The notes beneath the pieces are model-generated. The model was not told where the DNA came from. It searched no databases and worked only from the letters and a program-made list of their open reading frames with translations. Of a stretch of 64,000 bases of DNA, positions 2,343 to 55,772 are shown in pieces (within the stretch, counting starts at the first letter, position 1; every line of letters starts with the position of its first letter). The position numbers and the translations under genes are program-made. The DNA is from an uncultured Bacilli bacterium (GTDB lineage Bacteria > Bacillota_I > Bacilli_A > RF39 > UBA660): the NCBI GenBank assembly GCA_944329425.1, contig CALVIG010000002.1, positions 593 through 64,592 of the forward strand. The letters run 5' to 3'.

Positions 2343-4348
2343 TGAATAAAAAATTAAATATAGTATTGTTTTTATTTTGTTTAATTTCTTTGATTAGAAC
2401 TACTATTATAATTATAAATGATAAAAATTTTTACTTAGAAGAGCAAAAGAGTATCGTTGGTGTTATAACTAACATAACAAAAGATGATGATAAAGTAGTT
2501 ATTGATGTAAAGCAAAAAGATAAATATAGAATAACTAAATATGAAAATATAAACTTTGAATTAGGGGATAGAGTAAGGGTAAAAGGAGTTTTTTCTACCC
2601 CAACAAATAATACCGTTTTTAATCTTTTTAATTACCGAAAATATCTTTTATCTAAAAACATAACCATGGTAAGTTATGATGCTAATTTGAATTTAATTTC
2701 TAAAAATAATAACGTTTTATACCGTTTAAAAAATAGTGTCATTAACCACGTGGAAAAGTACGAGTCATCAAATTATTTAAAAGCTTTTATTTTGGCAGAT
2801 ACTTCAGAGATAAGTAATGATGTAAAAGAAAGTTATAATATGATTGGTATAAGTCATCTTTTAGCTATATCAGGGATGCACGTGGGAGTTTTTTTATATA
2901 TTTTAAATTTATTTTTAAAAAAATATAAATTTAAAAACGTAGTAATTATTTTGTTTTTATTATTTTTTCTTTTTTTAACAGGTTTTCCTGAATCCTTATT
3001 GAGATGTGTTACTTTCTTTATTTTAAGTTTAATAAACAAAAAGTTTAAACTTAATGTAAGTGACATTAAATTAATTATTTTTTGTTGTTGTTTATTACTT
3101 TTATTAAACCCATATTTAGTATATAGCGTAGGATTTTTATTTTCTTTTACCATTACCTTTTTTATATTATTAGCTAGACCTTACCTAAAACATAAAAACT
3201 ATTTTAAAAAAATATTTTTTATGTCTTTAATTTGTTTTTTTGCATCACTCCCCATATTAGCAAATTATTTTTTTAAGATTAATTTTTTATCTCCTTTTTT
3301 AAACGTTTTTTTCATTCCTTTAGTTTCTATTATTGTTTTTCCGTTTAGCCTAATAACTTTTTTTATTCCTTTTTTAGATGGATTTTATGTAACAATAATA
3401 AAGTTTTTTGAATTTATTTGCGGACTTATAAGTAAAATAGACGTGTTATCTTTTTCAATTGCTAAACCAAACGTAGTAATGATATTGATTTACTATGTAT
3501 CATTATATTTAACGATTAAGGTTAATAAAAAGTGGATTGTTTTATTTTTAATGATTTTGATTATTAATTTAAATATGAGGTTTTTAATTATTAATCCATC
3601 ACTTACCTTTATAGATGTTGGTCAAGGCGATAGCACTATTATTATATTACCAGGGGGAAAAACGATTTTAATTGATACTGGTGGTAAATATATGAGTAAT
3701 TATTCTATAGCAAAAAATAAAATCATACCATATTTGAATTCCGTTGGAATAAATAAAATAAATGCTTTAGTTTTAACGCACGGAGATTACGACCATATGG
3801 GGGAAGCGGTTAACTTAATTAATAATATTAAGGTAGAAAAGGTAATACTAAATAATGATGAATATAATGATTTGGAATTAAATTTAATTAAACAATTAGA
3901 TAAGAAGCATATTCCTTACTATAAAGAAGTTAGTAAATTAAATATAGGTGAAAACAAATTATATTTTTTAAATGATAAAATACATGATGATGAAAATGAT
4001 AACTCAATTGTTGCTTACTTACAATTAAAAGATGTGAAAATATTGCTGATGGGTGATGCGGGGTTAAAGGTAGAAGAGGAAATTTTAAAAAAATATAATG
4101 TTAAAGATGTTGATGTTTTAAAAGTTGGCCATCATGGTAGTAAAACAAGTTCTGGTAAAACGTTTATAAATAACGTTAATCCTAAGTATGGAATAATATC
4201 GGTAGGTAAAAATAATAGATATGGTCATCCAAATAAAGAAGCATTAGATAATTTAAAAAACAGCACTATTTATAGAACTGATATAGATGGAAGTATTATA
4301 TTTAAAATTAAATATAAAAAAATAAAAATACATACGTGTCCGCCTTAA
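2342..4348 (+). CDS. comEC: DNA internalization competence protein ComEC/Rec2 (competence domain + metallo-beta-lactamase domain)
   Basis: 668 aa, polytopic N-terminal half, C-terminal MBL motif VLTHGDYDHMGE / HHGS. Start overlaps the comEA stop (TAATG). Confidence 0.85.
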   Translation: MNKKLNIVLFLFCLISLIRTTIIIINDKNFYLEEQKSIVGVITNITKDDDKVVIDVKQKDKYRITKYENINFELGDRVRVKGVFSTPTNNTVFNLFNYRKYLLSKNITMVSYDANLNLISKNNNVLYRLKNSVINHVEKYESSNYLKAFILADTSEISNDVKESYNMIGISHLLAISGMHVGVFLYILNLFLKKYKFKNVVIILFLLFFLFLTGFPESLLRCVTFFILSLINKKFKLNVSDIKLIIFCCCLLLLLNPYLVYSVGFLFSFTITFFILLARPYLKHKNYFKKIFFMSLICFFASLPILANYFFKINFLSPFLNVFFIPLVSIIVFPFSLITFFIPFLDGFYVTIIKFFEFICGLISKIDVLSFSIAKPNVVMILIYYVSLYLTIKVNKKWIVLFLMILIINLNMRFLIINPSLTFIDVGQGDSTIIILPGGKTILIDTGGKYMSNYSIAKNKIIPYLNSVGINKINALVLTHGDYDHMGEAVNLINNIKVEKVILNNDEYNDLELNLIKQLDKKHIPYYKEVSKLNIGENKLYFLNDKIHDDENDNSIVAYLQLKDVKILLMGDAGLKVEEEILKKYNVKDVDVLKVGHHGSKTSSGKTFINNVNPKYGIISVGKNNRYGHPNKEALDNLKNSTIYRTDIDGSIIFKIKYKKIKIHTCPP

Positions 4349-4619: not shown

Positions 4620-5231
4620 TTAAAATTTTCTGTATAATCCAATTGCTTTGCCTAAAATAACGCAATTTGGTAATATGATAGGTGACATTGTATCATTTTC
4701 TGGTTGCAACCTTATATGCGTTGGCTCCTTATAAAACGTTTTAAGGGTAACTTCGTTATCTAACGTCATTGCTACTACTATATCACCATTGCGTGCAACG
4801 TTTTGCCTTTGAACAATTACTATATCACCATCATATATTCCGGCATTTACCATGCTTTCTCCACTTACTTTTAAAGTGAATACTTCTTCTTTACTTGGAA
4901 TTAAATAAGCTGGTAAACTAAAAAATTCATTAGGTGTTTCAATGGCCTCTATCGGAGAACCCGCGGTTATTTTCCCAAGAAGTGGAACTTCAACTACGTC
5001 TTCGTTTAAATACTCGTTATTACCAACTATTTCTAAAGATCTGTATTTAGAATTGGTTTTTTTTATATAACCTTTATTTTCTAATGCGTTTATGTGAGAC
5101 TGAATGGTTGCGGGTGAATTAAGCCCAAGAGCACTACCTATTTCTCTTACTGCAGGTGGATATCCGTGCTTTGCAATGTAACTTTTTATGTAATCCAAAA
5201 CATCTTGTTGACGGTTTGTTAGTTTTTCCAT
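4620..5231 (-). CDS. lexA: LexA repressor
   Basis: 203 aa. N-terminal wHTH (RQQDVLDYI...GYPPAVREIG). C-terminal S24 peptidase with Ala-Gly cleavage site and Ser/Lys dyad (GESM...KTFYKE). GGAGG SD. Confidence 0.9.
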   Translation of the reverse strand: MEKLTNRQQDVLDYIKSYIAKHGYPPAVREIGSALGLNSPATIQSHINALENKGYIKKTNSKYRSLEIVGNNEYLNEDVVEVPLLGKITAGSPIEAIETPNEFFSLPAYLIPSKEEVFTLKVSGESMVNAGIYDGDIVIVQRQNVARNGDIVVAMTLDNEVTLKTFYKEPTHIRLQPENDTMSPIILPNCVILGKAIGLYRKF

Positions 5232-7592: not shown

Positions 7593-8015
7593 ATGAGAGT
7601 ATATTACTTATTTAAAATTAATGATTCTTTTTCTAAGTTGTATCACAGCAAGACTTATTATTTATATAAGATATTAGAGCAGATTTCTGAATCCAGCAAA
7701 AATGATTTTATAATTTCATACAGGTTGTTTGAACAATTAGCGGTTGCATTTAATAAAGCCGAAGTAAATGGTAACATATATAAGCATTATTCTTCTAGTG
7801 AATATTACCGAAAAACGCTTAATAAGCACGTGTTAGATGATGGGGTGGAAAAAACAAAACTTACCGTTTATAACACTTACGTTAAGATTAGAACTAACAA
7901 AAATATAACGGAATTTTTTAAGATACTAGAAAAAGAAAAAAACGTTTTTGTTTGTGATTTTAATAATAAAGATTATTTTTGGCTTAGTAAAGTAACGTCA
8001 AAAAGTCTTGTATAA
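7593..8015 (+). CDS. sirA: Sporulation inhibitor of replication SirA (YneE) homologue
   Basis: 140 aa. N-terminus [11 protein letters not shown] and C-terminus [14 protein letters not shown] resemble B. subtilis SirA (MERHYYTYLIKEE ... MDFNSKRYGWLNPV). Located right after tkt as in B. subtilis. Confidence 0.6.
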
Positions 8016-8440: not shown

Positions 8441-10351
8441 ATGGCTAAATATGATGAATCATCAATTAAAATTTTAGAAGGTCTTGAAGCGGTAAGAAAA
8501 AGACCTGGTATGTATATAGGTTCTACTGATAAGAGAGGTTTACATCACCTTGTATGGGAAATAGTGGATAATGGTATAGATGAAGCTATTAATGGTTATG
8601 GAAATTACTTAAAGGTTATAATTCATAAAGATGGGTCTGTTTCCGTTTCGGATGAGGGGCGTGGTATTCCGGTTGGTATGCACGCATCAGGTAAATCTAC
8701 TCCAGAAGTAATTTACACGGTTTTGCACGCTGGTGGTAAGTTTCAAGAAGGTGGATATAAAGTATCTGGTGGACTTCATGGTGTTGGTGCATCAGTTGTT
8801 AACGCTTTATCAAAATGGATGAAAGTAACTACGTATCGTGATGGTGGTAAATACGAAATTTCGTTTAAAGATGGAGGACATTTAGATTCTGATTTAAAAA
8901 AAGTTGGAACAACAAATAAAACGGGTACTACCGTAAGGTTTATGCCGGATGATGCAATTTTTTCAATAACAACTTTTTCCTTTACTACTATTTGTGAAAG
9001 AATGCAGGAATCAGCTTTCTTAATTAAAGGTCTTACCATTGATGTTATCGATGAAGAAGATGAAAAAGAGGCTCATTTTCATTATGAGAAAGGTCTTGAA
9101 GAATTTGTTTCTTATTTAAATGAAGGTAAAAAAACGCTTCATAACGTAGTTGGTTTTGAGGGTATAAAAAATAAAATTGAGGTTGATTGTGCTTTCCAAT
9201 ATACGGATTCTTATAACGAAAACGTTGTGTCATTTGTTAATAACGTAAAAACCTCTGATGGTGGTTCTCATGAAGTGGGATTGAAAAGTGCATTAACCAA
9301 GGTTTTTAATGACTATGCTAAAAATAATGGTTATTTAAAGGCTAAGGATAAGAATTTTGAAGGTAGCGACGTAAGGGAAGGATTAACCGTTATTTTATCT
9401 TTAAAAATTCCGGAAGAATTATTACAGTTTGAAGGACAAACTAAGGGGAAATTAGGTACACCTCTTGCTAAAACGGTTGTTGAGCAAGTTGTTTATGAGA
9501 AAATAGGTTACTTTTTGGAAGAAAATAAACAAGTTGCAACTGACATAATAAACAAAGCTTTAAAGGGCAAAGCAGCGAGGGAAGCCGCAAGAAAGGCAAG
9601 GGAAGAAGCTCGCAAAGGGAAAAGTAAAAATTCAAAAGAAAAGAATATAAGTGATAAACTAGCTCCTGCAACCAAAAAGAATCCTAAGAAAAACGAGTTA
9701 TTTATAGTTGAGGGTGATTCGGCAGGAGGTAGTGCTAAAACAGGTAGGGATAGAGAATACCAAGCAATATTACCACTACGAGGTAAAGTTTTAAATACTG
9801 AAAGATGTACCGTTGATGAGGCTTATAAAAACGCCGAAATTAACACACTTATTTATACGATAGGGGCAGGAGTTGGCCCGGATTTCCATATAGAAGATTG
9901 TAATTATGATAAGATAATTATAATGACCGATGCTGATGATGATGGATGCCATATACAAGTTTTGTTAATTACTTTCTTTTATAGGTACATGAGACCTTTA
10001 ATTGAAGCAGGTAAAATATATATTGCAAACCCTCCTTTATATAAAGTTACTTTTTCTAAAAAAGATGAGGTTTATGTGTATACGGACGAAGAATTAAAAA
10101 AAGTAACCGAAGGTAAAAAAGTAGAAGATTTACAAAGATATAAAGGTTTAGGTGAAATGGATGCAAACCAATTATGGGATACAACCATGGATCCTTTAAA
10201 GCGAAGTTTAATTAAAGTTAAGATAACTGATGTTGCTTTGGCAGAAAAAAGGGTTTCCATTCTTATGGGTGATAAAGTAGAACCAAGAAAAGATTGGATT
10301 GAAGAAAACGTAGATTTTACGTTAGAAGATAATTATGAAATGTTAAAGTAG
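8441..10351 (+). CDS. parE: DNA topoisomerase IV subunit B (ParE)
   Basis: 636 aa GyrB/ParE family with GHKL ATPase, TOPRIM (EGDSAGGSAK) and a short C-terminus. Paired with a ParC-type A subunit. Confidence 0.8.
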   Translation: MAKYDESSIKILEGLEAVRKRPGMYIGSTDKRGLHHLVWEIVDNGIDEAINGYGNYLKVIIHKDGSVSVSDEGRGIPVGMHASGKSTPEVIYTVLHAGGKFQEGGYKVSGGLHGVGASVVNALSKWMKVTTYRDGGKYEISFKDGGHLDSDLKKVGTTNKTGTTVRFMPDDAIFSITTFSFTTICERMQESAFLIKGLTIDVIDEEDEKEAHFHYEKGLEEFVSYLNEGKKTLHNVVGFEGIKNKIEVDCAFQYTDSYNENVVSFVNNVKTSDGGSHEVGLKSALTKVFNDYAKNNGYLKAKDKNFEGSDVREGLTVILSLKIPEELLQFEGQTKGKLGTPLAKTVVEQVVYEKIGYFLEENKQVATDIINKALKGKAAREAARKAREEARKGKSKNSKEKNISDKLAPATKKNPKKNELFIVEGDSAGGSAKTGRDREYQAILPLRGKVLNTERCTVDEAYKNAEINTLIYTIGAGVGPDFHIEDCNYDKIIIMTDADDDGCHIQVLLITFFYRYMRPLIEAGKIYIANPPLYKVTFSKKDEVYVYTDEELKKVTEGKKVEDLQRYKGLGEMDANQLWDTTMDPLKRSLIKVKITDVALAEKRVSILMGDKVEPRKDWIEENVDFTLEDNYEMLK

Positions 10352-10363
10352 GTGATTAAGATA

Positions 10364-12895
10364 ATGAGTGAGTTGTTACAAAAGATATATGATTATTCAT
10401 TAGAAGAGATAATGGGTGAACGTTTTGGAAGGTACTGTAAAACAATTATCTTAGATCGCGCCTTACCTGACGTAAGGGATGGATTAAAACCAGTACAAAG
10501 AAGAATTTTATACGGAATGTATAAAAGTGGTAACACGTATGATAAAAAGTATCGTAAGAGTGCTAAGGCAGTTGGAGAAATAATGGGTAACTATCACCCT
10601 CATGGGGATTCTTCGATTTATGATGCCATGGTAAGAATGAGTCAAGATTGGAAGATGGAAACCCCATACATAGACATGCATGGTAACAATGGTTCTATGG
10701 ATGGTGATGGAGCTGCTGCGATGCGTTATACCGAAGCTAGGTTATCTAAAATAAGTAATGAGTTATTGTTAGACATTAATAAAAATACCGTTGAAATGGC
10801 TCCCAATTATGATGATACTTTAGAGGAACCAACCGTTTTACCCGCAGGATTTCCAAACCTTTTAGTTAACGGGTCTACTGGTATTTCAGCGGGTTATGCA
10901 ACGAATATTCCAACCCATAATTTGGGAGAAGTAATAGATGCAACAATCAAAAGGATTGATTCACCTAACTGCTTGTTGGATACTATAATGAGCGTTATGC
11001 CAGGGCCTGATTTTCCTACTGGTGGGGTGATTGAAGGTGTAAAAGAAATAAAAGAAGCTTATAACACGGGCAAGGGTAAGATTGTTGTAAAGTCTAAGTA
11101 TGAGGTTATAAAAGAAAAAGGAAAGTATCAAATAGTTATAACGGAAATTCCTTATGAAGTCAACAAGGCTTTACTTGTCAAAAAAATGAATGATATAAGA
11201 ATAGATAAAAAAATTGAAGGTATTTTAGATATTAGGGACGAAACTTCTAGGGGAGAACTTAGAATAGTAATTGATCTAAAAAAAGACGCTAACGCTGATT
11301 TGGTTATCAATTATTTATTAAAAAATACTGATATGCAAGTTTCTTATAGTTTTAACATGATTGCAATCGTTAATCACAGGCCAAGACAAATTGGGGTTCT
11401 TGCAATAATTGATTCTTTCATTAAACATCGTACCGAAGTGGTTACAAGAAGAACTAAATTTGATCTAGCACATGATAAGGATAGATATCATATTTTAGAA
11501 GGTTTAATAAAAGCAATTAGTATTCTTGATGAAGTAATTAAGGTTATTAGGGCTTCTAAAAATAAATCAGATGCTATCTTGAATTTAGTAAAGGAATTTT
11601 CGTTTACCGAAAAGCAAGCAACGGCTATAGTTATGTTACAATTATACCGTTTAACTAATACTGACATAACTGATGTTAAAAACGAAATGCAAAGATTAGA
11701 AGAAGAAATAAAAGAATATGAATTAATATTATCTAGTGATGCAGAATTAAAAAAAGTTATTAAAGAAGAATTAAGAAAGATAAAAAAAGAATTTTCTTCA
11801 CCTAGAAAGACACAAATAAAAGAAGAAATAACAGAAATTAAGATTGATGCAACCGCTATGATTCCAAAAGAAGACGTAATAGTAGTCGTGACAAATGAAG
11901 GATACGTAAAAAGGGTTTCTAAAAAATCTTATGGTTCATCTGATGGAGATGAAACGCTACTAAAAGAAAACGATTATGTTTCAGGATTATATGAACAAAA
12001 CACGTTAGATACGCTTCTTATGTTTACTAATAAGGGTAATTACTTATTTATACCGGTTCATGAATTACCAGAATTAAAGTGGAAGGATCTTGGTAAACAC
12101 GTTAGTAATATAGTTCCAATTGGTCAGGATGAAAAGATAATAAAATCTATTCCGGTTAGTAACTTTGATAAAAGGGAAATTGTTATATTTACTAAAAACG
12201 GAATGGTTAAGAAAACGCTTTTAGAAGATTTTAAAGTACAAAGGTATTCTAAACCAATATCGTGCATTAAGCTTAAAGATAACGATGAGGTAATAAACGT
12301 AAGTGATGAAGCTTATAACGAGGTGTTTATCGCAACTAAAAAAGGTTACGGATTATGGTATGATAAATCTGAAATTCCTACGATTGGATTAAAAACAGCA
12401 GGTGTAAAATCAATTAATTTAAAAGATGATGAAGTAGTAAGTGCAAATTTATTTGACGGTTCTTTTGAATACGTTACCGTTATAACTGCTAAAGGTCTTT
12501 CAAAGCGTATTAAGTTAACGGAATTTGAAAAAACTACCAGGGCTAAAAGAGGTTTATTAATTATAAGAGAAGTTAAAAGTAATCCACAGGAAATAATTTC
12601 TGCATTCGTAAGTGATGTAAAACATAACATAGTTATAAAAACGATTAACAAAGACATTAAACTAAAATTATCTGAAATACCAATCATGGATAGGTATTCA
12701 GTAGGAAGCACGTTAACAAAAAGTAAGGTTCAAGTTGTTTATCAACCAACGGAATTAATAAAAAAAGAAGATAAACCGGCCGTAGTATCTAAACCGGTAA
12801 CGAAAGAAGAGTCTAAAGAAAAAAAAGAGGTTTCCTTAAAAGAAATAGATGATAAATTTATGACCATTGATGATTTTTTAGATAATTTTGATTAA
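10364..12895 (+). CDS. parC: DNA topoisomerase IV subunit A (ParC)
   Basis: N-terminus LEEIMGERFGRYCKTIILDRALPDVRDGLKPVQRRILYGM is ParC-like (not GyrA-like). Active-site Tyr region present. Start moved to ATG with a GGTGA SD (track 10352). Confidence 0.8.
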   Translation: MSELLQKIYDYSLEEIMGERFGRYCKTIILDRALPDVRDGLKPVQRRILYGMYKSGNTYDKKYRKSAKAVGEIMGNYHPHGDSSIYDAMVRMSQDWKMETPYIDMHGNNGSMDGDGAAAMRYTEARLSKISNELLLDINKNTVEMAPNYDDTLEEPTVLPAGFPNLLVNGSTGISAGYATNIPTHNLGEVIDATIKRIDSPNCLLDTIMSVMPGPDFPTGGVIEGVKEIKEAYNTGKGKIVVKSKYEVIKEKGKYQIVITEIPYEVNKALLVKKMNDIRIDKKIEGILDIRDETSRGELRIVIDLKKDANADLVINYLLKNTDMQVSYSFNMIAIVNHRPRQIGVLAIIDSFIKHRTEVVTRRTKFDLAHDKDRYHILEGLIKAISILDEVIKVIRASKNKSDAILNLVKEFSFTEKQATAIVMLQLYRLTNTDITDVKNEMQRLEEEIKEYELILSSDAELKKVIKEELRKIKKEFSSPRKTQIKEEITEIKIDATAMIPKEDVIVVVTNEGYVKRVSKKSYGSSDGDETLLKENDYVSGLYEQNTLDTLLMFTNKGNYLFIPVHELPELKWKDLGKHVSNIVPIGQDEKIIKSIPVSNFDKREIVIFTKNGMVKKTLLEDFKVQRYSKPISCIKLKDNDEVINVSDEAYNEVFIATKKGYGLWYDKSEIPTIGLKTAGVKSINLKDDEVVSANLFDGSFEYVTVITAKGLSKRIKLTEFEKTTRAKRGLLIIREVKSNPQEIISAFVSDVKHNIVIKTINKDIKLKLSEIPIMDRYSVGSTLTKSKVQVVYQPTELIKKEDKPAVVSKPVTKEESKEKKEVSLKEIDDKFMTIDDFLDNFD

Positions 12896-18970: not shown

Positions 18971-19717
18971 GTGAAGCTTGTGAAAAAAGGTTTATTAATA
19001 CTTTTGATTTTAATTTTACTATCTGGTTGTACCATAACTAGAATTGATAGTTATAATTATGAACAGGTAATGGATAAAATATTATCATTGGATATAAATG
19101 TATATAATAACGTTGGAAAAGGTTATAAATATTATGCTCCTAAGGGAGTTGTTAGAACGGATGCTAAGGAATATAATGATACTTTAAAAAGAGGTAGTAC
19201 TATATATTATCTATACGTTGATGTTGTAAGCTATTATTACAAGGCAAAAATTGATTATGAAGAAAATGATGATGTGTATTTTTCTAAAAAAATAAAAAAT
19301 AAAGATAAAGAAGGATATATTGAAATACAAGAAGAAAATGATAAATTATATGTTCAAATGCAGTATAATTATGCTAAAATAGAAACATACGTAGATGAAT
19401 CATGCTTAAATGAAGCAATTAGTGATATAAGTTATATTCTATCTAGTATTGATTTTAATGATTCTTTATTAAAAAAAATGTATGAATCAGGTAATTTTGA
19501 TTCTAAAGAAGAAGTTTATAAACTTTTTGATAATAAAGAAAAAGAAGGAAACTTCCTTGAATACGTTAAGGAATACGATAAGTATGATGGTAGTGAAGAA
19601 GAACAAAAAGAAGAAGAAATAATTATTGAGCAAACAACTACTACGACAACAACAACCACTAAGGAGAAAACTACTAGTAAGGCAACTGAAGATAGTCAAA
19701 CAACGGTTGGTGAATAA
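18971..19717 (+). CDS. Lipoprotein (LSGC lipobox) with poly-Thr C-terminal tail
   Basis: Signal peptide plus LLSGC lipobox. Tyr-rich body. C-terminal TTTTTTTTT linker. Confidence 0.5.
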   Translation: MKLVKKGLLILLILILLSGCTITRIDSYNYEQVMDKILSLDINVYNNVGKGYKYYAPKGVVRTDAKEYNDTLKRGSTIYYLYVDVVSYYYKAKIDYEENDDVYFSKKIKNKDKEGYIEIQEENDKLYVQMQYNYAKIETYVDESCLNEAISDISYILSSIDFNDSLLKKMYESGNFDSKEEVYKLFDNKEKEGNFLEYVKEYDKYDGSEEEQKEEEIIIEQTTTTTTTTTKEKTTSKATEDSQTTVGE

Positions 19718-19738
19718 CAGAAAGGTGTGAAAGTTTTT

Positions 19739-20647
19739 ATGGGACTAAGAAGTAAGTTAAATAAAATGAAAAGTTTTTTATTTGATGAAGAGGAAGATGA
19801 AAAAGAAATTAAAAAAACTCCAAAAATTTCTTTAAAAAAAGACGTAAAAAAAGAAAAAATTAAGGAAGAGCAAGATGATTTTTCTAAGACTCAAGAAATA
19901 GAGGAATTATATTTCGAAGATGTTTCCGAAAATAGTATTGAAAAGACTAAAGAAATAAAGTCTAGAGCTACTAAAATAGAACCAGAATTTAAATTTCCTG
20001 AGTTTAACGATGATGATTTTGCGGTTGTAAGAACTAAACCAGAACCAATTATTAAGCCCGTAAGGGAGGAAGTTAAACCGGTTTTATATCAGGGAAGTAA
20101 AAGAAAAGAAGAAACAAAAAAATTTAAGCCTAGCCCTATAATTTCACCTATATACGGATTATTAGATAAAGATGGTAACACGATACAAAATGATTCTAAA
20201 AGTCATGATGGTAGTAGCCAAAAAGAAGAAGTTTCATTAGATATCGTTAGAAAAAAAGCTTATGGAGCCTTAGACGAAGAACTTGAAAACACGATGAAAC
20301 GTTTAAGTAAAAAAACAATAGAAGAAGCAGAAAAAGATATGGAAGTTGAAGAAAAAGAACTTTCTAGAACTAAACAAAAAGCAAAAAAAGTTGAAGAGAC
20401 AAAACCTGTTGTTATTTCAAAAGAGGATTTGGAAGCGGATGACGATGATGATATGATATTACCAAATATCAATTTTAAGGAAATAGACGTTGATAAGGAA
20501 AGATTAAAAAATAATTCTGGTAAAAAAAGTGTAAAAGAAAACATAGAAAAACAATTAGATGACGATGACGATGATGACGACACTAAGGAACAAGATTTAT
20601 TTAATTTAATTGATTCAATGTATCAGAAAGAAGGTAAGGAAGATTAA
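19739..20647 (+). CDS. Hyper-acidic Lys/Glu/Asp-rich protein with SepF-like N-terminal amphipathic helix (about 302 aa)
   Basis: Track ORF 19727-20647. ATG at codon 5. N-terminus MGLRSKLNKMKSFLFDEEEDE resembles the SepF membrane-binding helix, but no SepF core domain is present. Contains poly-Asp runs. Confidence 0.4.
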   Translation: MGLRSKLNKMKSFLFDEEEDEKEIKKTPKISLKKDVKKEKIKEEQDDFSKTQEIEELYFEDVSENSIEKTKEIKSRATKIEPEFKFPEFNDDDFAVVRTKPEPIIKPVREEVKPVLYQGSKRKEETKKFKPSPIISPIYGLLDKDGNTIQNDSKSHDGSSQKEEVSLDIVRKKAYGALDEELENTMKRLSKKTIEEAEKDMEVEEKELSRTKQKAKKVEETKPVVISKEDLEADDDDDMILPNINFKEIDVDKERLKNNSGKKSVKENIEKQLDDDDDDDDTKEQDLFNLIDSMYQKEGKED

Positions 20648-21400: not shown

Positions 21401-22183
21401 ATGAAAAGTGAAAGATATCAATTGGTGGCAATTGATAACGTTACTAAAGAAAAATACGTTATTGAACTTGCTAATGATAATAAGTTTAATAAAGGAAGCT
21501 TAAATTTTATTGATAATGGTACTTGTAGGTTTAAAGATAAACCGCAATTAGCTAAGTATTTTTATGATAAAGGTAAAATACCAACGTTAAAAGTGGATCT
21601 CATAATAACGTACATTAATAATAAAGAAGAAAAGCATTTACCAGTTATATTTAATGATGAGTACATTTATAATGTTTCTAAAACTAAGCATAATGAAAAT
21701 TTTATTTATTATGTAGTAAGACTTCTGCTTAGCAAACTTAGTTATGGTGAATTTTATGATTACCTAATGGAAGAAAACAATTATAATCGTGATTTAAAAA
21801 AATCTGGAAGTTATTTAAACAATATAATTTTAGGTACTATAGCGAATTATTATAGTAATTATGTAATACATAAAAACATTGGTGTTAACATTACTAATAT
21901 TGAGTATACACTTTTTAAAGAACTTAAGCAGTATAAGCAACTTAGAACATTATATTATTTTATGAAAAATTATGATTTAAAAAAAAGAGTTAATTTAAAA
22001 AAAGAAGAATCACTTACTTTTGGTGATTTTTGTAATTCGGATGGAGAGCAAAACCCTAAAATAAAACCCAGTATGCAAGAAGAAGTAGATTTTTTAAGAA
22101 CAACTTATGGTATGGATGAGGTTTATAGCTATTATGATGGTGATCAAGTTTTCGAATCAGGTTGTTTAGATTATAAAAAATAA
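21401..22183 (+). CDS. Hypothetical protein (260 aa), immediately upstream of cotE
   Basis: Long ORF with no recognisable domain. Strong terminator after it (about 22194-22222). Confidence 0.4.
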   Translation: MKSERYQLVAIDNVTKEKYVIELANDNKFNKGSLNFIDNGTCRFKDKPQLAKYFYDKGKIPTLKVDLIITYINNKEEKHLPVIFNDEYIYNVSKTKHNENFIYYVVRLLLSKLSYGEFYDYLMEENNYNRDLKKSGSYLNNIILGTIANYYSNYVIHKNIGVNITNIEYTLFKELKQYKQLRTLYYFMKNYDLKKRVNLKKEESLTFGDFCNSDGEQNPKIKPSMQEEVDFLRTTYGMDEVYSYYDGDQVFESGCLDYKK

Positions 22184-22212: not shown

Positions 22213-22240
22213 ACTTTTTTTAGTGTAAACGCATAGATTA
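22213..22240 (+). promoter_or_regulatory. Sigma-K-type promoter candidate upstream of cotE
   Basis: AC-N17-CATAGATTA matches the sigma-K consensus AC-N16/17-CATA---TA. It lies between the terminator and the cotE SD. Confidence 0.3.
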
Positions 22241-22259: not shown

Positions 22260-22778
22260 ATGTATAAGGAGATAGTTACTAAAGCTGTTATAGGAAAGGG
22301 TAAAAAATATTTTAAAAACACCTATAATCTTTTAACGGAAAACAACGCTAATACAATTTTGGGCTGCTGGGTAATTAATCACGAATTTAAAGGCACGGTA
22401 AATGGTGATAAGGTTGTTATAGATGGTAATTTTGACGTTAATATATGGTATTCATATGATGATGATAAAAAAACTACCGTAGCTAACAAAAACATATCTT
22501 ATAGTGAAGTTGTTAGCGTAAAAACCAAAACTGGAACTTCTTTGGCTGGAAGTGATATAATCGTAAGAGCGTTAAAGCAACCAAGTTGTAGTAATGTTAC
22601 AGCAAAGGATGATGTAATAGAGTTTGATATAGAAAAAGAGTTAGGAATAGAAGTAGTAAATGATGAAAAAGTAAAAATTGCGATAGAAGAAGATGAGGAA
22701 CCATGGGACACAATCGATGATGATACACAAGAAGTAGAAAAAGCAATTGATGAAGAAGTTAAAGAGGATTTTATTTAG
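22260..22778 (+). CDS. cotE: Outer spore coat morphogenetic protein CotE
   Basis: YKEIVTKAVIGKGKKY..ILGCWVINH..NIWYSY...LKQPSC...acidic C-terminal tail. Collinear with B. subtilis CotE (YREIITKAVVAKGRK..ILGGWIINH..VWYSY..LQQPNC..acidic tail). Confidence 0.75.
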   Translation: MYKEIVTKAVIGKGKKYFKNTYNLLTENNANTILGCWVINHEFKGTVNGDKVVIDGNFDVNIWYSYDDDKKTTVANKNISYSEVVSVKTKTGTSLAGSDIIVRALKQPSCSNVTAKDDVIEFDIEKELGIEVVNDEKVKIAIEEDEEPWDTIDDDTQEVEKAIDEEVKEDFI

Positions 22779-33258: not shown

Positions 33259-33825
33259 ATGGCAAGAGTAAAAAATGGTGCTGTAACTAAAGCACGTCAT
33301 AAAAAAGTATTAAAGGAAGCTAAAGGATATTTTGGAAGTAAACATCGTTTATATAAAACTGCAAAAGAACAATTAATGCATTCTAGAGTTTATGCATACA
33401 GGGATAGAAGACAAAATAAACGTAATTTTAGAAAATTATGGATTGTACGTATTAACGCTGCATGTCGTGAAAACGAAATTAGTTATTCAAGGTTTATTAA
33501 TGGTTTATCAAAAGCAGGTATTACCGTTAACCGTAAAATGCTTGCTGAAATAGCAATTGATTCACCAAAGGCTTTTACTGATTTAGTTATAATAGCTAAG
33601 GATGCTTTAGAAGGAAAAATGCCAAAGGAAGCAAAAGCTTCAGTAGCTAAAGCTGACTCAAAAAAAGAAGTTAAACAAGAAACTAAAAAAACTCCAGCAA
33701 AAAAAGAAGAAAAAGAAGATATATCAAAATTAACCGTAGCTGAGTTAAAGAAAATGGCTAAAGAAAAAGGTATCGAAGGATATACTTCTATGAAAAAGGC
33801 TGAATTATTAGAGAAACTAGCATAG
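33259..33825 (+). CDS. rplT: 50S ribosomal protein L20 with about 70-aa C-terminal extension ending in a Rho-N/SAP-like motif
   Basis: The first ~118 aa are canonical L20 ([26 protein letters not shown]...). They are followed by a K/E/A-rich linker and [31 protein letters not shown], which fits the Rho termination factor N-terminal (SAP-like) helix-extension-helix motif. Single uninterrupted ORF. Confidence 0.8.
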
Positions 33826-34990: not shown

Positions 34991-35803
34991 TTATAAGAAT
35001 AAAATAACAAGTATACCCGCAATTAAACAATATAACGAAAAATAACCAAGTTTTCCTTTTTTCATTATATCAATAAACCATTTAGCACTAAAATAAGTGA
35101 TTATTGCACTAGCTATCATACCGAAAGTATAAGGTAATACGAGTTGTCCAATACCTGGGGTTTCAATTAAATCTTTTACTCCTAAAACCATTGTGGCAAC
35201 ACTTATCGGTAAGTAAAGCATGAATGAGTAGTTAACGGCTGCTGGCCTTTTAAAATCTCTTGTCATGGCACCAACAACCGTTGCTCCACTTCTTGAAATT
35301 CCAGGGAAGAGCGCTACGGCTTGAAATAAACCAACCACTAAAGCATCAACGTACGTTAACTCTTTTTTTTCTTTTTTTCCTTTCATGTCTTTTATTAAGA
35401 AAAGTGCACATGCTGTTATTAAAAGGGCTATACCTACTAATTTTACGTTATCAGATATAAGATCTATTTTATCCTTTAACAATAGACCTAAAATTCCAGC
35501 AGGAATCGTACCAATAACGATTAACCAAGCATAATTATAATTTTCTTTGTAGCATTGTTTTTTTGTTTTTATAAATCCAAAAAAATCAGTAATTATTTTT
35601 ATAATTTCCTTTCTATATAAAAACAATATAGCTAAGAAAGAACCAAAATTAACAATTATTTCAAAGTTAATATCATTTAACATATCAAAGTTAAAAAGCT
35701 TTTTAAATATTAATAAATGACCACTTGAAGATATCGGAATAGGTTCGGTAAACCCTTGTATTATTCCTAAAAAAACATACTCTAATATTTTTATTACGTT
35801 CAT
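34991..35803 (-). CDS. uppP: Undecaprenyl-diphosphate phosphatase UppP/BacA
   Basis: 270 aa polytopic protein with BacA motifs (SRSGATV, PGISRSG). Confidence 0.85.
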   Translation of the reverse strand: MNVIKILEYVFLGIIQGFTEPIPISSSGHLLIFKKLFNFDMLNDINFEIIVNFGSFLAILFLYRKEIIKIITDFFGFIKTKKQCYKENYNYAWLIVIGTIPAGILGLLLKDKIDLISDNVKLVGIALLITACALFLIKDMKGKKEKKELTYVDALVVGLFQAVALFPGISRSGATVVGAMTRDFKRPAAVNYSFMLYLPISVATMVLGVKDLIETPGIGQLVLPYTFGMIASAIITYFSAKWFIDIMKKGKLGYFSLYCLIAGILVILFL

Positions 35804-35870: not shown

Positions 35871-36101
35871 GTGATAGAAATGCTTATTAAAATTTTTTTA
35901 TTTTTATTAGGTTTTGGTTTAATGACTATTGGTTTTTCGACACTTATTTTGTACATAAATTTATTTAGTTTTGGGTATAATTTTAAAGAATACGTTAGTT
36001 ATGTAGTGAAAATTCCAGAATTTTATTATTTGTTAATTGGCTTTTTGTTACTTAATGTTTCAATTTTGTTAAAAGGAGAAAAAGATGAAAAACACATTTG
36101 A
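35871..36101 (+). CDS. Small two-TM membrane protein (76 aa)
   Basis: ORF with two hydrophobic helices. Overlaps the next gene by 17 nt (operonic). Confidence 0.35.
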   Translation: MIEMLIKIFLFLLGFGLMTIGFSTLILYINLFSFGYNFKEYVSYVVKIPEFYYLLIGFLLLNVSILLKGEKDEKHI

Positions 36102-36723
36102 TATTTTGGTTAATTTTAAAAAATATGCATATGAGTTTTATGAATGGGAAAAAGATGATGATATAAAACACGTTAAAACAATACCTACTTTTAGGGTTTC
36201 ACTAGGTTGTTTGCGTGATTTTATGAATTGTAACTTAGTTGTAGAAAAAAGTTTTTTAGACGTAATACGCGGAAAAACTGAAGTATTTTGTAAAGGCATA
36301 ATAAAGGTATTAGACTATTGTTGTATATTGTTTTGTGGAGAAAAAGTTGTAGCGGTTGTTTTTGATAACGATGGTAATTTAATTGGTAAAAGTAACTTAT
36401 TATTTGATGAGGCTGATGACGTTGTTTTGTCTTGTAATGATTTAACAGAAACAAAAATAAATTATAAAATAATTTCTAAAACAAGTCATAATTATAATTG
36501 TACTAGAAAAGAAAGTAAGAAGATTAATTATTTATTAAATTACGTTAATGATATTTACGGTAATAACAGTGATTATGAAATTAGGTACGTATATTTTGAA
36601 TGCTTTAATAAAATGTTAGAAAATAACGAAGAAGCCTATTTAGAATTGAAAAAACAAATTGAAAATTATAATTTTGATATTATAGAAAAATTAACTGCGT
36701 TAATTAAAGTTTTAAAAAAATAG
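36085..36723 (+). CDS. Hypothetical Cys-rich protein (212 aa)
   Basis: Long ORF with no recognisable domain. Translationally coupled to the upstream mini-membrane protein. Confidence 0.4.
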   Translation: MKNTFDILVNFKKYAYEFYEWEKDDDIKHVKTIPTFRVSLGCLRDFMNCNLVVEKSFLDVIRGKTEVFCKGIIKVLDYCCILFCGEKVVAVVFDNDGNLIGKSNLLFDEADDVVLSCNDLTETKINYKIISKTSHNYNCTRKESKKINYLLNYVNDIYGNNSDYEIRYVYFECFNKMLENNEEAYLELKKQIENYNFDIIEKLTALIKVLKK

Positions 36724-36770
36724 TATAAAAAATTTCGTCCTTGCCAAATTATTATTGAAGGAGGATGAAT

Positions 36771-37307
36771 ATGAAGAAAATATTAGTTGTATTATTAGCG
36801 GTTTTTCTTTTTGCTGGATGTAGTTGTAGTTTAAACGATAATAAACCGGAAGAAGCTATTGAAACGTTTTTTGAAAAATATCGTGCCAAAGATGATGATA
36901 TAATTACTCAATTAAAAGATACCATAGATAACGAAGATTTAACTGATGATGCTAAGGAAAAATATCAAGAGTTAATGGAAAAACAGTATGATCAATTTGC
37001 ATACGTAATAAAGGACGTAAATGAAGAAAACGATTCAGCAACTGCAACGGTAGAACTTACGGTACTTAATTATAGAAGCGCGGTTTTAAAGGCAGAAGAA
37101 GAGCTAAAAAATAATCAGGAAAAGTTTAACGACGAAGAAGGAAATTTCTCTGAGGAAAAGTACATGGAATATAAAATAGAAAAAATGTCAGAAGTAACTG
37201 AAACTACAACGCATACAATTGATTTATCCTTAACCAAGGAAAATGGTATGTGGAAAGTTAATCAACTAAGTAGTGACGATATTTCTAAGCTTCATGGATT
37301 ATATTAA
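36771..37307 (+). CDS. Lipoprotein (AGCSCS lipobox), NTF2-like/DUF4878-type
   Basis: Signal peptide plus lipobox. C-terminal ENGMWKVNQ is typical of NTF2-fold lipoproteins. Start moved to the 2nd ATG for SD spacing. Confidence 0.5.
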   Translation: MKKILVVLLAVFLFAGCSCSLNDNKPEEAIETFFEKYRAKDDDIITQLKDTIDNEDLTDDAKEKYQELMEKQYDQFAYVIKDVNEENDSATATVELTVLNYRSAVLKAEEELKNNQEKFNDEEGNFSEEKYMEYKIEKMSEVTETTTHTIDLSLTKENGMWKVNQLSSDDISKLHGLY

Positions 37308-40578: not shown

Positions 40579-41424
40579 ATGGAAAGTATAATACTATTAA
40601 CATTTTTAACGGCGTTGATAAGCTCTATTGCATCATACGTCGATAAACATTTAATGAATTTGGGAATTAGTAGAAAAGACTATTTTTATTATATGTGTCT
40701 TTCGATGGTTCCGTTTTCGGTTTTTATGATTGTAATAGAATGCATTACTGGAAATTTCAAACTCGAAATGTCGATTATTCCAATTATTGCTTTAATATTC
40801 GCGATGGCAACAAGATATTTTAAGCAGATGTCTTTAGCTAAAATGGGGCAAAAACTTGAGGTTTTTGAGAATTTGTCTTATATGTCTCTTGGAATAATAT
40901 TATCATATATAGTAGACATTTTAATTGGCATAAGAGACTTTAACATTTGGTACGTATGCTTTATAATCATTGTTTTAATCGGAGTATTTAGTTTATCAAA
41001 CGTAAAATTAAGGTTAAAAAATTTAAAAAAGGATTTAATAATAAGAATAATTGGTGAAGTAGCATTAGGATTTATTGCAAATATCATTCTTAGATACTGG
41101 TCGAACGCGTTTTACATATTTATTTTAAACGCTCTATTAACAATTGTTTTTTCTAAGAATTATTCTTTTAATTATCATAAAAAACATAAAAAGATAATAA
41201 AATGGGTATTTATTCAACAATCATTCGGCTTTTTTTACATATATTTATATAATTATTTATCAAGTATTTCTGTTACAACAAGCAACCTTGTAAAGCCAAT
41301 AACACTTGTATTATCATTTATATTTGCATATTTTGTTAGAGAAAACAAAAGAAAACCAAAAGCTAAAGATTTTGCATCATTATGTCTTATAGTTTTAGGT
41401 GTTGTATTACTAAATATGATATAA
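40579..41424 (+). CDS. Polytopic membrane protein (DMT/EamA-like, about 9-10 TM)
   Basis: 281 aa with two similar halves of hydrophobic helices. Confidence 0.35.
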   Translation: MESIILLTFLTALISSIASYVDKHLMNLGISRKDYFYYMCLSMVPFSVFMIVIECITGNFKLEMSIIPIIALIFAMATRYFKQMSLAKMGQKLEVFENLSYMSLGIILSYIVDILIGIRDFNIWYVCFIIIVLIGVFSLSNVKLRLKNLKKDLIIRIIGEVALGFIANIILRYWSNAFYIFILNALLTIVFSKNYSFNYHKKHKKIIKWVFIQQSFGFFYIYLYNYLSSISVTTSNLVKPITLVLSFIFAYFVRENKRKPKAKDFASLCLIVLGVVLLNMI

Positions 41425-41446
41425 TCTATTTAAAGGAGGTATAACA

Positions 41447-41917
41447 ATGTTAGAAAAATTAGAAGGTAAATACGTGTTTTTTGATGTGGATGGGACTTTA
41501 AGCGAATACAGGTTTAATGACAAACTTTATGCTAGTTTAAAGCCAGAACTAGGTTGTCAAACCTTAGAAGACTTTTTGTTTGGTAATTTATTTTTAAAAG
41601 CAAGACCACTTAAAACGATGCAGCGTGTTATAGAAAAACTCGATAAAGATAGAATATTTGTTTTAGGAACAATAGTTTCTAATAACGAAATAAATCAAAA
41701 GTATACGTGGCTAAAAGAAAACTATCCAAACATAAAAAAAGAAAACATAATTTTCATATCATCTACCATGTTAAAACCAGAAGTTATAATAGAGTATTCT
41801 AAAAAATACAAAATTGATTTAAAAGATATGGTTTTCGTAGATGATAGATTAGACGTTTTAAGAAAAGCAGAAGAAATGGGAATAACGGCATACCATCCAA
41901 GTTCATTCACTGAATAA
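41447..41917 (+). CDS. HAD-superfamily 5'(3')-deoxyribonucleotidase-like hydrolase
   Basis: N-terminal FFDVDGTL HAD motif I. About 156 aa NT5C-like. Confidence 0.5.
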   Translation: MLEKLEGKYVFFDVDGTLSEYRFNDKLYASLKPELGCQTLEDFLFGNLFLKARPLKTMQRVIEKLDKDRIFVLGTIVSNNEINQKYTWLKENYPNIKKENIIFISSTMLKPEVIIEYSKKYKIDLKDMVFVDDRLDVLRKAEEMGITAYHPSSFTE

Positions 41918-54945: not shown

Positions 54946-54981
54946 AAAAACTCGTAAGCATTTGCTTACGGGTTTTCTTTT

Positions 54982-55596
54982 TTAAAAAATTCGGTTTATA
55001 GAAACGCATGCGGAATATAAGTCATTTGGTACGAAATCAAAGTCAACATCAGAAGTGTTAATTAGTCTATAGCTTGCGCCAGGAAGGGCTTCAAAGATTG
55101 CGTTACCGCTAATTGTACCAGTATCACAACAAGTTAGTTTATTATGAGTAGATGAATGAGCAATTAACACATCTTCAGGTGAAACTTGGTGAAGTTCTAT
55201 TCCAAGAGCTATAGGCTCACAATCGTTTTCAACTATTTTTTTACTTCTTACGTTGATCCACCAATGCATTGTATATATACCGTTTTCCGGGATAAAGAAA
55301 TCACCAGTGGCTGGATTATATGATATTTTATTTGAAATGTTGGTGTTTTGAAATAATAATGGTGTTTGTTTTGGTACCGTTGTATTAGTTTCGTCATGAA
55401 CCATTGCATAACTATCTAAAGCGGCTCCAGGTCCTTGAGGTCCGGTAGCTCCAGTTGCTCCTTTTGGCCCCGTTGGCCCAGTAGGACCAGTATGGCCAGT
55501 GCAGTCGTTTATTAAACATTTAATTACTGCACATAGACAATCATCATTGCATGTGTTTTCGGCAACTTAATTTAATTTTTCTTGGATGTTGTTCAT
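54982..55596 (-). pseudogene. BclA/C1q-like collagen-repeat (exosporium-type) protein gene interrupted by an in-frame TAA after codon 9
   Basis: Minus-strand ATG at about 55596 with AAAGGAAAAAA SD gives MNNIQEKLN, then TAA (55567-55569). The same frame continues VAENTCNDDCLCAVIKCLINDCTGH-TGPTGPTGPKGATGATGPQGPG (GXX collagen triplets). It then runs into the 140-aa C1q/BclA-C-like domain, which the track lists from an internal Met (54982-55404). Confidence 0.5.
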
Positions 55597-55772
55597 TAAT
55601 AATTTTTTCCTTTCGTTATCATAATATGTCGGTAACAAAAAGTTGCTAGAGCGAATATAATATAGGTTATAGCATGATGATTATATAACATAGATAAGTT
55701 CGTTTTATCTAATTGACATTTAATAATTAAACAAGTTAAAATAAGATTAGAAAAAAATATGGAGGTGCTAAT

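Follow-up and report, generated by a model that had tools for sequence, protein, structure and literature searches.

Why does a gene for a collagen-like protein in an uncultured gut bacterium carry a stop codon at its tenth codon, ahead of a reading frame that is otherwise open to its natural end? The gene lies on the minus strand, at 54982-55596, of a 64,000-nucleotide stretch of contig CALVIG010000002.1, hereafter the window, and its host belongs to the RF39 group of Bacilli. The answer favoured here, with a probability of about 0.82, is that the locus is a BclA-like spore-surface gene turned into a pseudogene by a genuine nonsense mutation, and that it is polymorphic. A preliminary description of this DNA had already noted the stop and the likeness to BclA; what is new is the RF39-group host, a different N-terminal module, and the status of the null allele, which is the common one and only one of several independent knockouts of the same gene.

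A nonsense codon common to many assemblies

The ATG at 55596-55594 on the minus strand is preceded by AAAGGAAAAAATTATTA and followed by AAC AAC ATC CAA GAA AAA TTA AAT, and then by TAA at 55569-55567. Translation confirms that nine codons are followed by an in-frame stop and that the frame is open downstream, as had been described. It continues for 194 codons with no further stop, up to the TAA at 54984-54982. This frame reads VAENTCNDDCLCAVIKCLINDC-TGHTGPTGPTGPKGATGATGPQGPG-AALDSYAMVHDE...SINRIF, and consists of a Cys-rich segment, eight G-X-Y triplets and a head domain of about 146 residues. The features of the lesion and of the frame are as follows.

55608-55613, minus strand: weak Shine-Dalgarno sequence, AAAGGA, 11 nt before the ATG, read from the sequence
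55570-55596, minus strand: start codon and eight further sense codons, MNNIQEKLN, the predicted translated part, the same as the N-terminus of the intact orthologue P0001
55567-55569, minus strand: premature TAA at codon 10, GAA (Glu) to TAA by G>T; the codon is GAA in the intact loci L001, L002 and L007
55402-55404, minus strand: internal ATG, the Met of the conserved SYAMVHD, at which gene callers start a spurious open reading frame (ORF) of 140 aa; no Shine-Dalgarno sequence precedes it
54982-54984, minus strand: normal stop codon of the gene, TAA, by translation

The ATG had been placed correctly, but the Shine-Dalgarno sequence, once called well placed, is weak: at AAAGGAAAAAA and a spacing of 11 nt, it departs from the family consensus, GAAAGGAGG. 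A frame scan found no in-frame ATG, GTG or TTG between the premature TAA and the Met of SYAMVHD (Met83), which is why a mechanical ORF list gives only the 140-aa ORF at 54982-55404. An out-of-frame TTG at the stop opens a short ORF only.

The frame beyond the stop has 633 database homologues. The best of these, P0001 (219 aa, 92% identity), reads through the stop position with a Glu, its N-terminus being MNNIQEKLN-E-VAENTCNDDCLC; together these two observations place the feature beyond chance. The contigs encoding P0001 (L001 and L002) come from the same species context, with an SDR about 99% identical to that of the window, and they keep the window's gene order, in which the gene stands between SDR and flavin reductase genes on one side and gatB-gatA-gatC-aspS on the other. 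Because codon 10 is GAA in this same-species, syntenic orthologue, the window's stop arose by one nonsense substitution, G>T. Phase variation through a simple sequence repeat was considered and rejected: the sequence at the stop, AAATTAAATTAAG, is not slippery, and the intact allele differs by a substitution rather than an indel.

The TAA at codon 10 (TAA-10) is present in the window and in L004-L006, L008, L009, L090, L092 and L093, contigs which stem from ONAT22-1, BRZ and a third project (ERZ13617167). Five of them (L004, L005, L006, L008 and L009), from two projects and different assemblers, share both the window's TAA and its short collagen region, and in L090, L092 and L093 the stop lies on other haplotypes. 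Overall, the identical TAA with identical flanks was found in at least nine fetched contigs that differ in sample, project and assembler. For the exact 140-aa product of the window (P0122), NCBI, ENA and Logan together list at least 29 contigs, and it is indexed in 39 blocks of the assembly collection. Intact forms are rarer in that collection: P0001, P0121, P0123 and P0126 occur on 2, 1, 5 and 2 contigs, respectively. The 140-aa calls of L007 and L091 were excluded, since they reflect scaffold gaps (N) among the collagen repeats. TAA-10 is the commonest allele sampled; it occurs on several haplotypes and outnumbers the intact alleles. A recent nonsense pseudogene had been among the options proposed for the locus. 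The nonsense mutation is borne out by the GAA of the same-species allele, but a private, recent lesion is not, given that the allele is the commonest sampled and lies on several haplotypes. One practical consequence is an annotation problem, in that a spurious protein of 140 aa is now recorded from gene callers for at least 29 contigs. A minor observation on three of the contigs (L005, L006 and L007) is that genes in their flanks are truncated or missing as called: aspS is 429 aa long, gatA is absent and an HI0933-like gene is 91 aa long; like the N-filled gap of L007, these may be assembly gaps.

The gene has also been broken independently in other ways. Within the same species, L003 carries CAA>TAA at codon 5 and GAA at codon 10, on a haplotype almost identical to that of the TAA-10 allele L090, and L094 is frameshifted by 1 bp inside the head. 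In other species an in-frame stop was found only once in about 75 complete loci, in L079, where GAA>TAA falls at codon 19, a different codon from that of the window, and where only three triplets remain. L075, also from another species, has lost its 5' half. L084/P0098, again from another species and with 82 cluster members, is frameshifted and nearly collagen-less, has an S>F change in the invariant LIAHSSTHN, and has the look of a further widespread pseudogene in this family. L019 and L030 (ATA) and L082 (ACG) lack an ATG at the start position, 8 nt after a perfect AAGGAGG, and the rest of the gene is intact; they represent either start-loss pseudogenes or near-cognate initiation. To judge from these alleles, inactivation of this gene class is recurrent.

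The intact protein, its promoter and its host

Three segments make up the frame downstream of the stop.

55501-55551, minus strand: Cys-rich motif C-NDD-CLC-AVIKCL-IND-C (CNDDCLCAVIKCLINDC), with C20, L21, C22 and C27 conserved in the family alignment
55426-55497, minus strand: collagen-like region of eight G-X-Y triplets, GHTGPTGPTGPKGATGATGPQGPG, by triplet count
54985-55425, minus strand: predicted C1q/TNF-like jelly-roll, similar to the C-terminal domain (CTD) of BclA, with invariant LIAHSSTHN and VPNDxYS motifs, from profiles, AlphaFold2 and Foldseek

Sequence profiles match the protein to known families weakly but consistently. The window protein scores 22.5 bits against Pfam C1q (cut-off 23.7), 16.8 against Collagen and 12.7 against BclA_C, while its head alone reaches 23.3 bits against C1q (PF00386; gathering threshold 23.7). 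Scores for BclA_C (PF18573) are 12.7-13.5 bits, below the curated cut-off of 38. All 16 of the 16 family heads tested match C1q (best E 5.6e-6) and BclA_C (best E 4.9e-5) weakly; a precomputed PF00386 match exists for many close homologues, and a precomputed Pfam Collagen match for most homologues. A profile search of the PDB with the full-length alignment was swamped by collagen matches, and the head domain alone was used instead; adiponectin C1q domains were then the sole non-collagen sequence match.

The AlphaFold2 model of an intact orthologue has an all-beta head with a predicted local distance difference test score (pLDDT) of about 90. In Foldseek searches of the PDB with this model, the best match was the F-BclA CTD (9h38) from the tip fibrillum of the B. 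thuringiensis endospore appendage (E 2.7e-9, TMt about 0.8). Further matches were 4-1BBL of the TNF family, C1QL3, Caprin-2, C1q heads (1pk6, TMt up to 0.83), ExsFA and B. anthracis BclA (1wck; E 4e-7, TMt 0.67). A TNF/C1q-like jelly-roll fold of the BclA type is supported for the head by this modelling.

The N-terminus is of another kind. The intact protein sequence contains neither a signal peptide nor an LPXTG motif, and begins MNNIQEKLNEVAENTCNDDCLC..., without a proline-rich leader. When three intact family members were scanned against NCBIfam at E<=10, only collagen-adhesin models matched and no exosporium-leader model did. The BclA/C1q architecture previously assigned to the gene is upheld by Pfam, PDB, AlphaFold2 and Foldseek comparisons, with two refinements: the host belongs to the RF39 group and not to Bacillus or Clostridium, and the leader motif is absent. 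The Cys-rich segment is presumed to have an anchoring or cross-linking role, by analogy with the Cys-rich connectors of the tip fibrillum proteins of endospore appendages (ENA) (PMC12357932).

The collagen-like region had been counted at about eight triplets and is exactly eight (55497-55426). It is shorter than in most relatives: L001, L003 and L090 have 13 triplets and L093 has 11, and the family median is 23 with a range of 3-51. Relative to its closest alleles the window lacks 45 bp (five triplets), and the junction falls within the repeated GGTCCTACTGG, near 55477-55488. Slippage or unequal recombination would be expected to produce such a 45-bp difference between copies of GGTCCTACTGG. 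The suggestion of a triplet-repeat contraction is borne out by this comparison of copy number among orthologues. The shortest stalks are enriched in broken alleles (L079 with 3, L094 with 6 and the window with 8 triplets), and a short intact version with five triplets, L076, exists too.

The gene is monocistronic, convergent with gatB and divergent from the SDR gene, and two elements delimit it.

55620-55628, minus strand: putative mother-cell (sigma-K/E-type) -10 element, CATATTATG, with one mismatch to the CATAnnnTA of orthologues
54947-54976, both strands: bidirectional intrinsic terminator, common to the gene and the convergent gatB, with a hairpin and a T-run on both strands

CATAnnnTA is the textbook sigma-K -10 sequence and resembles the sigma-E -10. 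A perfect copy lies upstream in 60 of 69 orthologous loci, and in 58 it stands 6-7 nt before the Shine-Dalgarno sequence, against a background of 0.015 per 25 nt; the one-mismatch version CATATTATG occurs in the window and its closest alleles. In the window, cotE has a perfect CATAnnnTA box, CATAGATTA, at 22232-22240 (plus strand), directly 5' of its Shine-Dalgarno sequence, in the same arrangement as in the collagen-like family. No sigma-70-like promoter was found on the strand of the collagen-like gene. From the match of the box, the sigma factor would be sigma-K or sigma-E. Many genera (for example L025, L036 and L054) also have a second element, TAGTTATTAGCTCA, about 19-20 nt before the -10 box. 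It is unlike the canonical sigma-K -35 ('AC') and may represent either an atypical -35 or the site of a regulator.

Other spore genes had been said to accompany the locus, and this is so: the window encodes CotE (22260-22778, Pfam E 3e-41), a SirA-like protein (7593-8015, E 2.7e-12) and an FtsW/SpoVE protein, its other ORFs being housekeeping genes. Relatives of the collagen-like gene are found in about 177 species-representative genomes of one clade, once per fetched locus. Those listed come from gut metagenome-assembled genomes of uncultured 'Bacilli bacterium', 'Tenericutes' and 'Mycoplasmatota', and include Candidatus Aphodocola, Avacholeplasma, Onthousia, Faecimonas and Coprosoma; two closed genomes are 1.26-1.31 Mb in size. 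To our knowledge, no member of RF39 or of the related gut Bacilli with reduced genomes has been cultured. The host is a lineage near Ca. Aphodocola: the window's SDR and flavin reductase genes show 96% and 98.6% identity to their counterparts in Ca. Aphodocola excrementigallinarum. Ca. Aphodocola corresponds to GTDB CAG-594, in the order RF39 (PMC8035907), and spore formation in RF39 has been predicted from gene content (PMC10868615). The conserved BclA-like family and its sigma-K-type box add support, at the level of sequence, to the view that the RF39 group forms and decorates spores.

Null allele, switch or something else

In the favoured reading, a polymorphic nonsense pseudogene, the intact protein of about 220 aa would be made without a signal peptide, probably in the mother cell from the sigma-K/E-type promoter. 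It would trimerise via its C1q/TNF-like head and short collagen stalk, as the fold suggests, and would be attached to the outer layers of the spore by its Cys-rich N-terminus. With G>T at codon 10, ribosomes would release a 9-residue peptide and no fibre would be made, leaving a null allele; the five collagen triplets would have been lost by slippage or recombination between GPT repeats. As the null allele is real and common, and segregates with intact alleles and other independent knockouts, the fibre appears to be dispensable, or sometimes disadvantageous, in the gut.

Paired null alleles differ by five nonsynonymous changes to one synonymous, compared with 2 to 31 in the intact sister species (Fisher p = 2e-4), and the private changes G179R (L003), H166Y (L093) and the S>F of LIAHSSTHN (L084) fall on family-invariant columns. 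This suggests relaxed constraint on the null alleles. The TAA-10 alleles differ in the head by up to 0.42 synonymous differences per site (pS), at a ratio of nonsynonymous to synonymous polymorphism (pN/pS) of 0.14; their 5' ends are nearly identical and their flanks are 99% identical. From this contrast along the gene, the locus is read as a mosaic whose head types are exchanged by recombination, probably inside or close to the collagen repeats. An ancient stop behind which function has kept the frame open was also considered and rejected, as the low pN/pS together with near-identical 5' ends and flanks points to recombination.

Several points weigh against the pseudogene. The nonsynonymous excess amounts to six substitutions only, and polymorphism within a species is expected to show a higher pN/pS in any case. 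From AMVHD to the last codon (141 codons) the DNA of the window is 100% identical to that of the intact L001, with 0 of 423 nt differing, so that, apart from the stop and the 45-bp deletion, no decay is seen in the window haplotype. The nonsense alleles (codons 5, 10 and 19) all fall in the first 19 codons, which hold 7-11% of the nonsense-mutable sites; the post-hoc P for this clustering is 0.005 for two events and 0.0013 for three. Possible explanations are chance, intolerance of later truncations that would be anchor-competent, or residual expression. The null status of the TAA-10 allele is itself presumed from its sequence, as are localisation to the spore surface, the sigma factor and the mode of anchoring, and a second intact paralogue may lie outside the 64-kb window.

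A bolder proposal is that an RF39 spore fibre is under recurrent, possibly balancing, selection for being switched off or dimmed. Most of the lesions identified are point mutations very close to the 5' end of the gene (stops at codons 5, 10 and 19, all TAA; ATG replaced by ATA or ACG), and they have arisen independently within and across species. If selection were at work, only very early lesions would persist, since later truncations would leave a harmful, anchor-competent fragment, and the null allele would predominate because, within the host, a cell would gain from losing a fibre that is immunogenic or targeted by phage. This proposal is held as tentative and rather doubtful.

It is improbable that the TAA-10 allele is still expressed, through read-through, hopping from the AAT of codon 9 to that of codon 17, or re-initiation, and so acts as a dimmer rather than a knockout. 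Such expression would fit the position of all three nonsense codons in a poorly conserved stretch upstream of the Cys motif, the near-cognate ATA and ACG starts behind a perfect Shine-Dalgarno sequence in three other species, and a downstream ORF that is open in four diverged TAA-10 haplotypes. TAA, however, is the tightest stop and the main stop codon of the organism, ending 40 of the 54 long ORFs in the window (a count on which reassignment of the stop codon was also rejected), and the premature TAA is followed by G. No suppressor tRNA was present among the 18 tRNAs of the window, and no RNA structure that might stimulate recoding was found around the stop (fold versus shuffles, z = -0.74). 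These findings speak against the translational bypass that the preliminary description had offered as an option. The AAT...AAT pair is present in the intact allele too and is thus not a specialised bypass signal. Re-initiation would have no canonical in-frame start before Met83, and a start at the earliest near-cognate codon, ATT at codon 25, would leave out the CLC motif. The substitutions at invariant residues in null alleles also count against expression, and a pN/pS of 0.14 at a pS of 0.42 is better explained by recombination with intact alleles than by prolonged persistence downstream of a stop.

Less probable still is that the gene is a remnant phage tail fibre or another secreted collagen-like adhesin and not a spore protein. 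Collagen stalks with C1q/TNF-like heads are known in phage fibres, PHROG tail-fibre families match with E down to 4.5e-14, and the NCBIfam Scl and Lcl adhesin models match as well. These matches, however, span only the G-X-Y repeats (residues about 32-74), and the head alone gives marginal matches to PHROGs of unknown function. The neighbours are housekeeping genes in conserved same-species synteny with no adjacent phage genes, and the family occurs once per fetched locus across its single clade. The protein has no signal peptide or LPXTG, the gene has the conserved CATAnnnTA box also seen at cotE, and the best structural match is the BclA head of a spore appendage.

A sequencing or assembly error, with GAA as the true codon at 55567-55569, had also been suggested and is now scarcely credible: the allele differs from the intact one by a single base and the adjacent collagen repeats are demonstrably hard to assemble, as the N gaps of L007 and L091 show, but the identical TAA allele recurs across many independent assemblies and its site lies outside any homopolymer or repeat prone to substitution error.

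Known systems and further features of the window

BclA of B. anthracis/cereus (1wck) resembles the RF39 protein in its short N-terminal domain, its GXT-rich collagen region of polymorphic length, its TNF/C1q-like head, the absence of a signal peptide and a promoter box of the mother-cell type. In contrast to BclA, the RF39 protein lacks an exosporium leader and has a Cys-rich N-terminus instead, its stalk is much shorter (8-13 triplets), head identity is about 12%, and the host is an RF39 bacterium with a genome of roughly 1.3 Mb. F-BclA and L-BclA of the B. cereus group ENA tip fibrillum (9h38) likewise combine collagen and C1q regions without an exosporium leader, and provide the best head match. 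Cys-rich connectors have been described at the N-termini of L-BclA and of a related candidate (PMC12357932). The docking motifs of F-BclA and L-BclA (an IILPH hook and a CC connector) differ from the CLCxVIxC of the RF39 family, and F-BclA, unlike the RF39 protein, has about 700 collagen residues; the resemblance of the CLCxVIxC N-terminus to the ENA tip connectors is only a lead. Eukaryotic C1q and adiponectin (PF00386) share the collagen stalk followed by a globular C1q jelly-roll, whereas the RF39 protein is bacterial, non-secreted and probably spore-associated.

The closest parallel for the lesion comes from C. difficile, in which bclA1-3 have been inactivated recurrently and a stop at codon 49 prevails in clades 2 and 3 (PMC13188886). 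As in the bclA1 pseudogene of C. difficile R20291, a single nonsense mutation prevails and the downstream sequence is canonical. With the codon-49 stop, however, C. difficile retains an N-terminal anchoring peptide of 48 aa and still has two paralogues, whereas the RF39 allele, with its stop at codon 10, leaves nine residues; intact and null RF39 alleles coexist in one species, and the taxon is unrelated. Taken singly, the locus matters little, as a natural knockout of a non-essential surface protein. The coexistence of intact and independently broken alleles, in parallel with C. difficile bclA1, offers a natural comparison for the role of such fibres in gut transmission.

The surroundings of the gene contain no recognisable partner. 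Clustering of flanking ORFs in 80 loci revealed no conserved operon partner such as a glycosyltransferase or an Ena subunit (the commonest family occurs in 15 of the 80). No Ena or F-ENA subunit genes stand beside the gene or were detected by Pfam among the window ORFs scanned, and a tblastn search for paralogues within the 64-kb window matched only the locus itself. In L019, at 2720-3823 (minus strand), a second, different collagen-like gene of 367 aa, with the N-terminus ...CSGLEQPCCCYGPTGPTG, adjoins the family member. The collagen cluster comprises 94 ORFs in the 80 loci; some loci may hold more than one, and some ORFs could be readings of repeats on the reverse strand.

The window as a whole has a strong strand bias, with nearly all long ORFs on the plus strand and positive GC skew throughout. 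Besides the collagen-like gene, the only credible genes on the minus strand are lexA (4620-5231) and bacA/uppP (34991-35803). The SirA-like gene (sporulation inhibitor of replication; 7593-8015, plus strand) is found here in a reduced-genome organism of the RF39 type, just 5' of gyrB/gyrA (8441-12895). An L20 ORF of 188 aa (33259-33825, plus strand) has an unusual C-terminal extension that matches Rho_N (residues 157-186, E 2.7e-8). ORFs of 150-300 aa with no Pfam match lie at 18971-20647, 21401-22183, 36085-37307 and 40579-41917 (plus strand); some of them flank cotE, and they might encode lineage-specific spore coat proteins.

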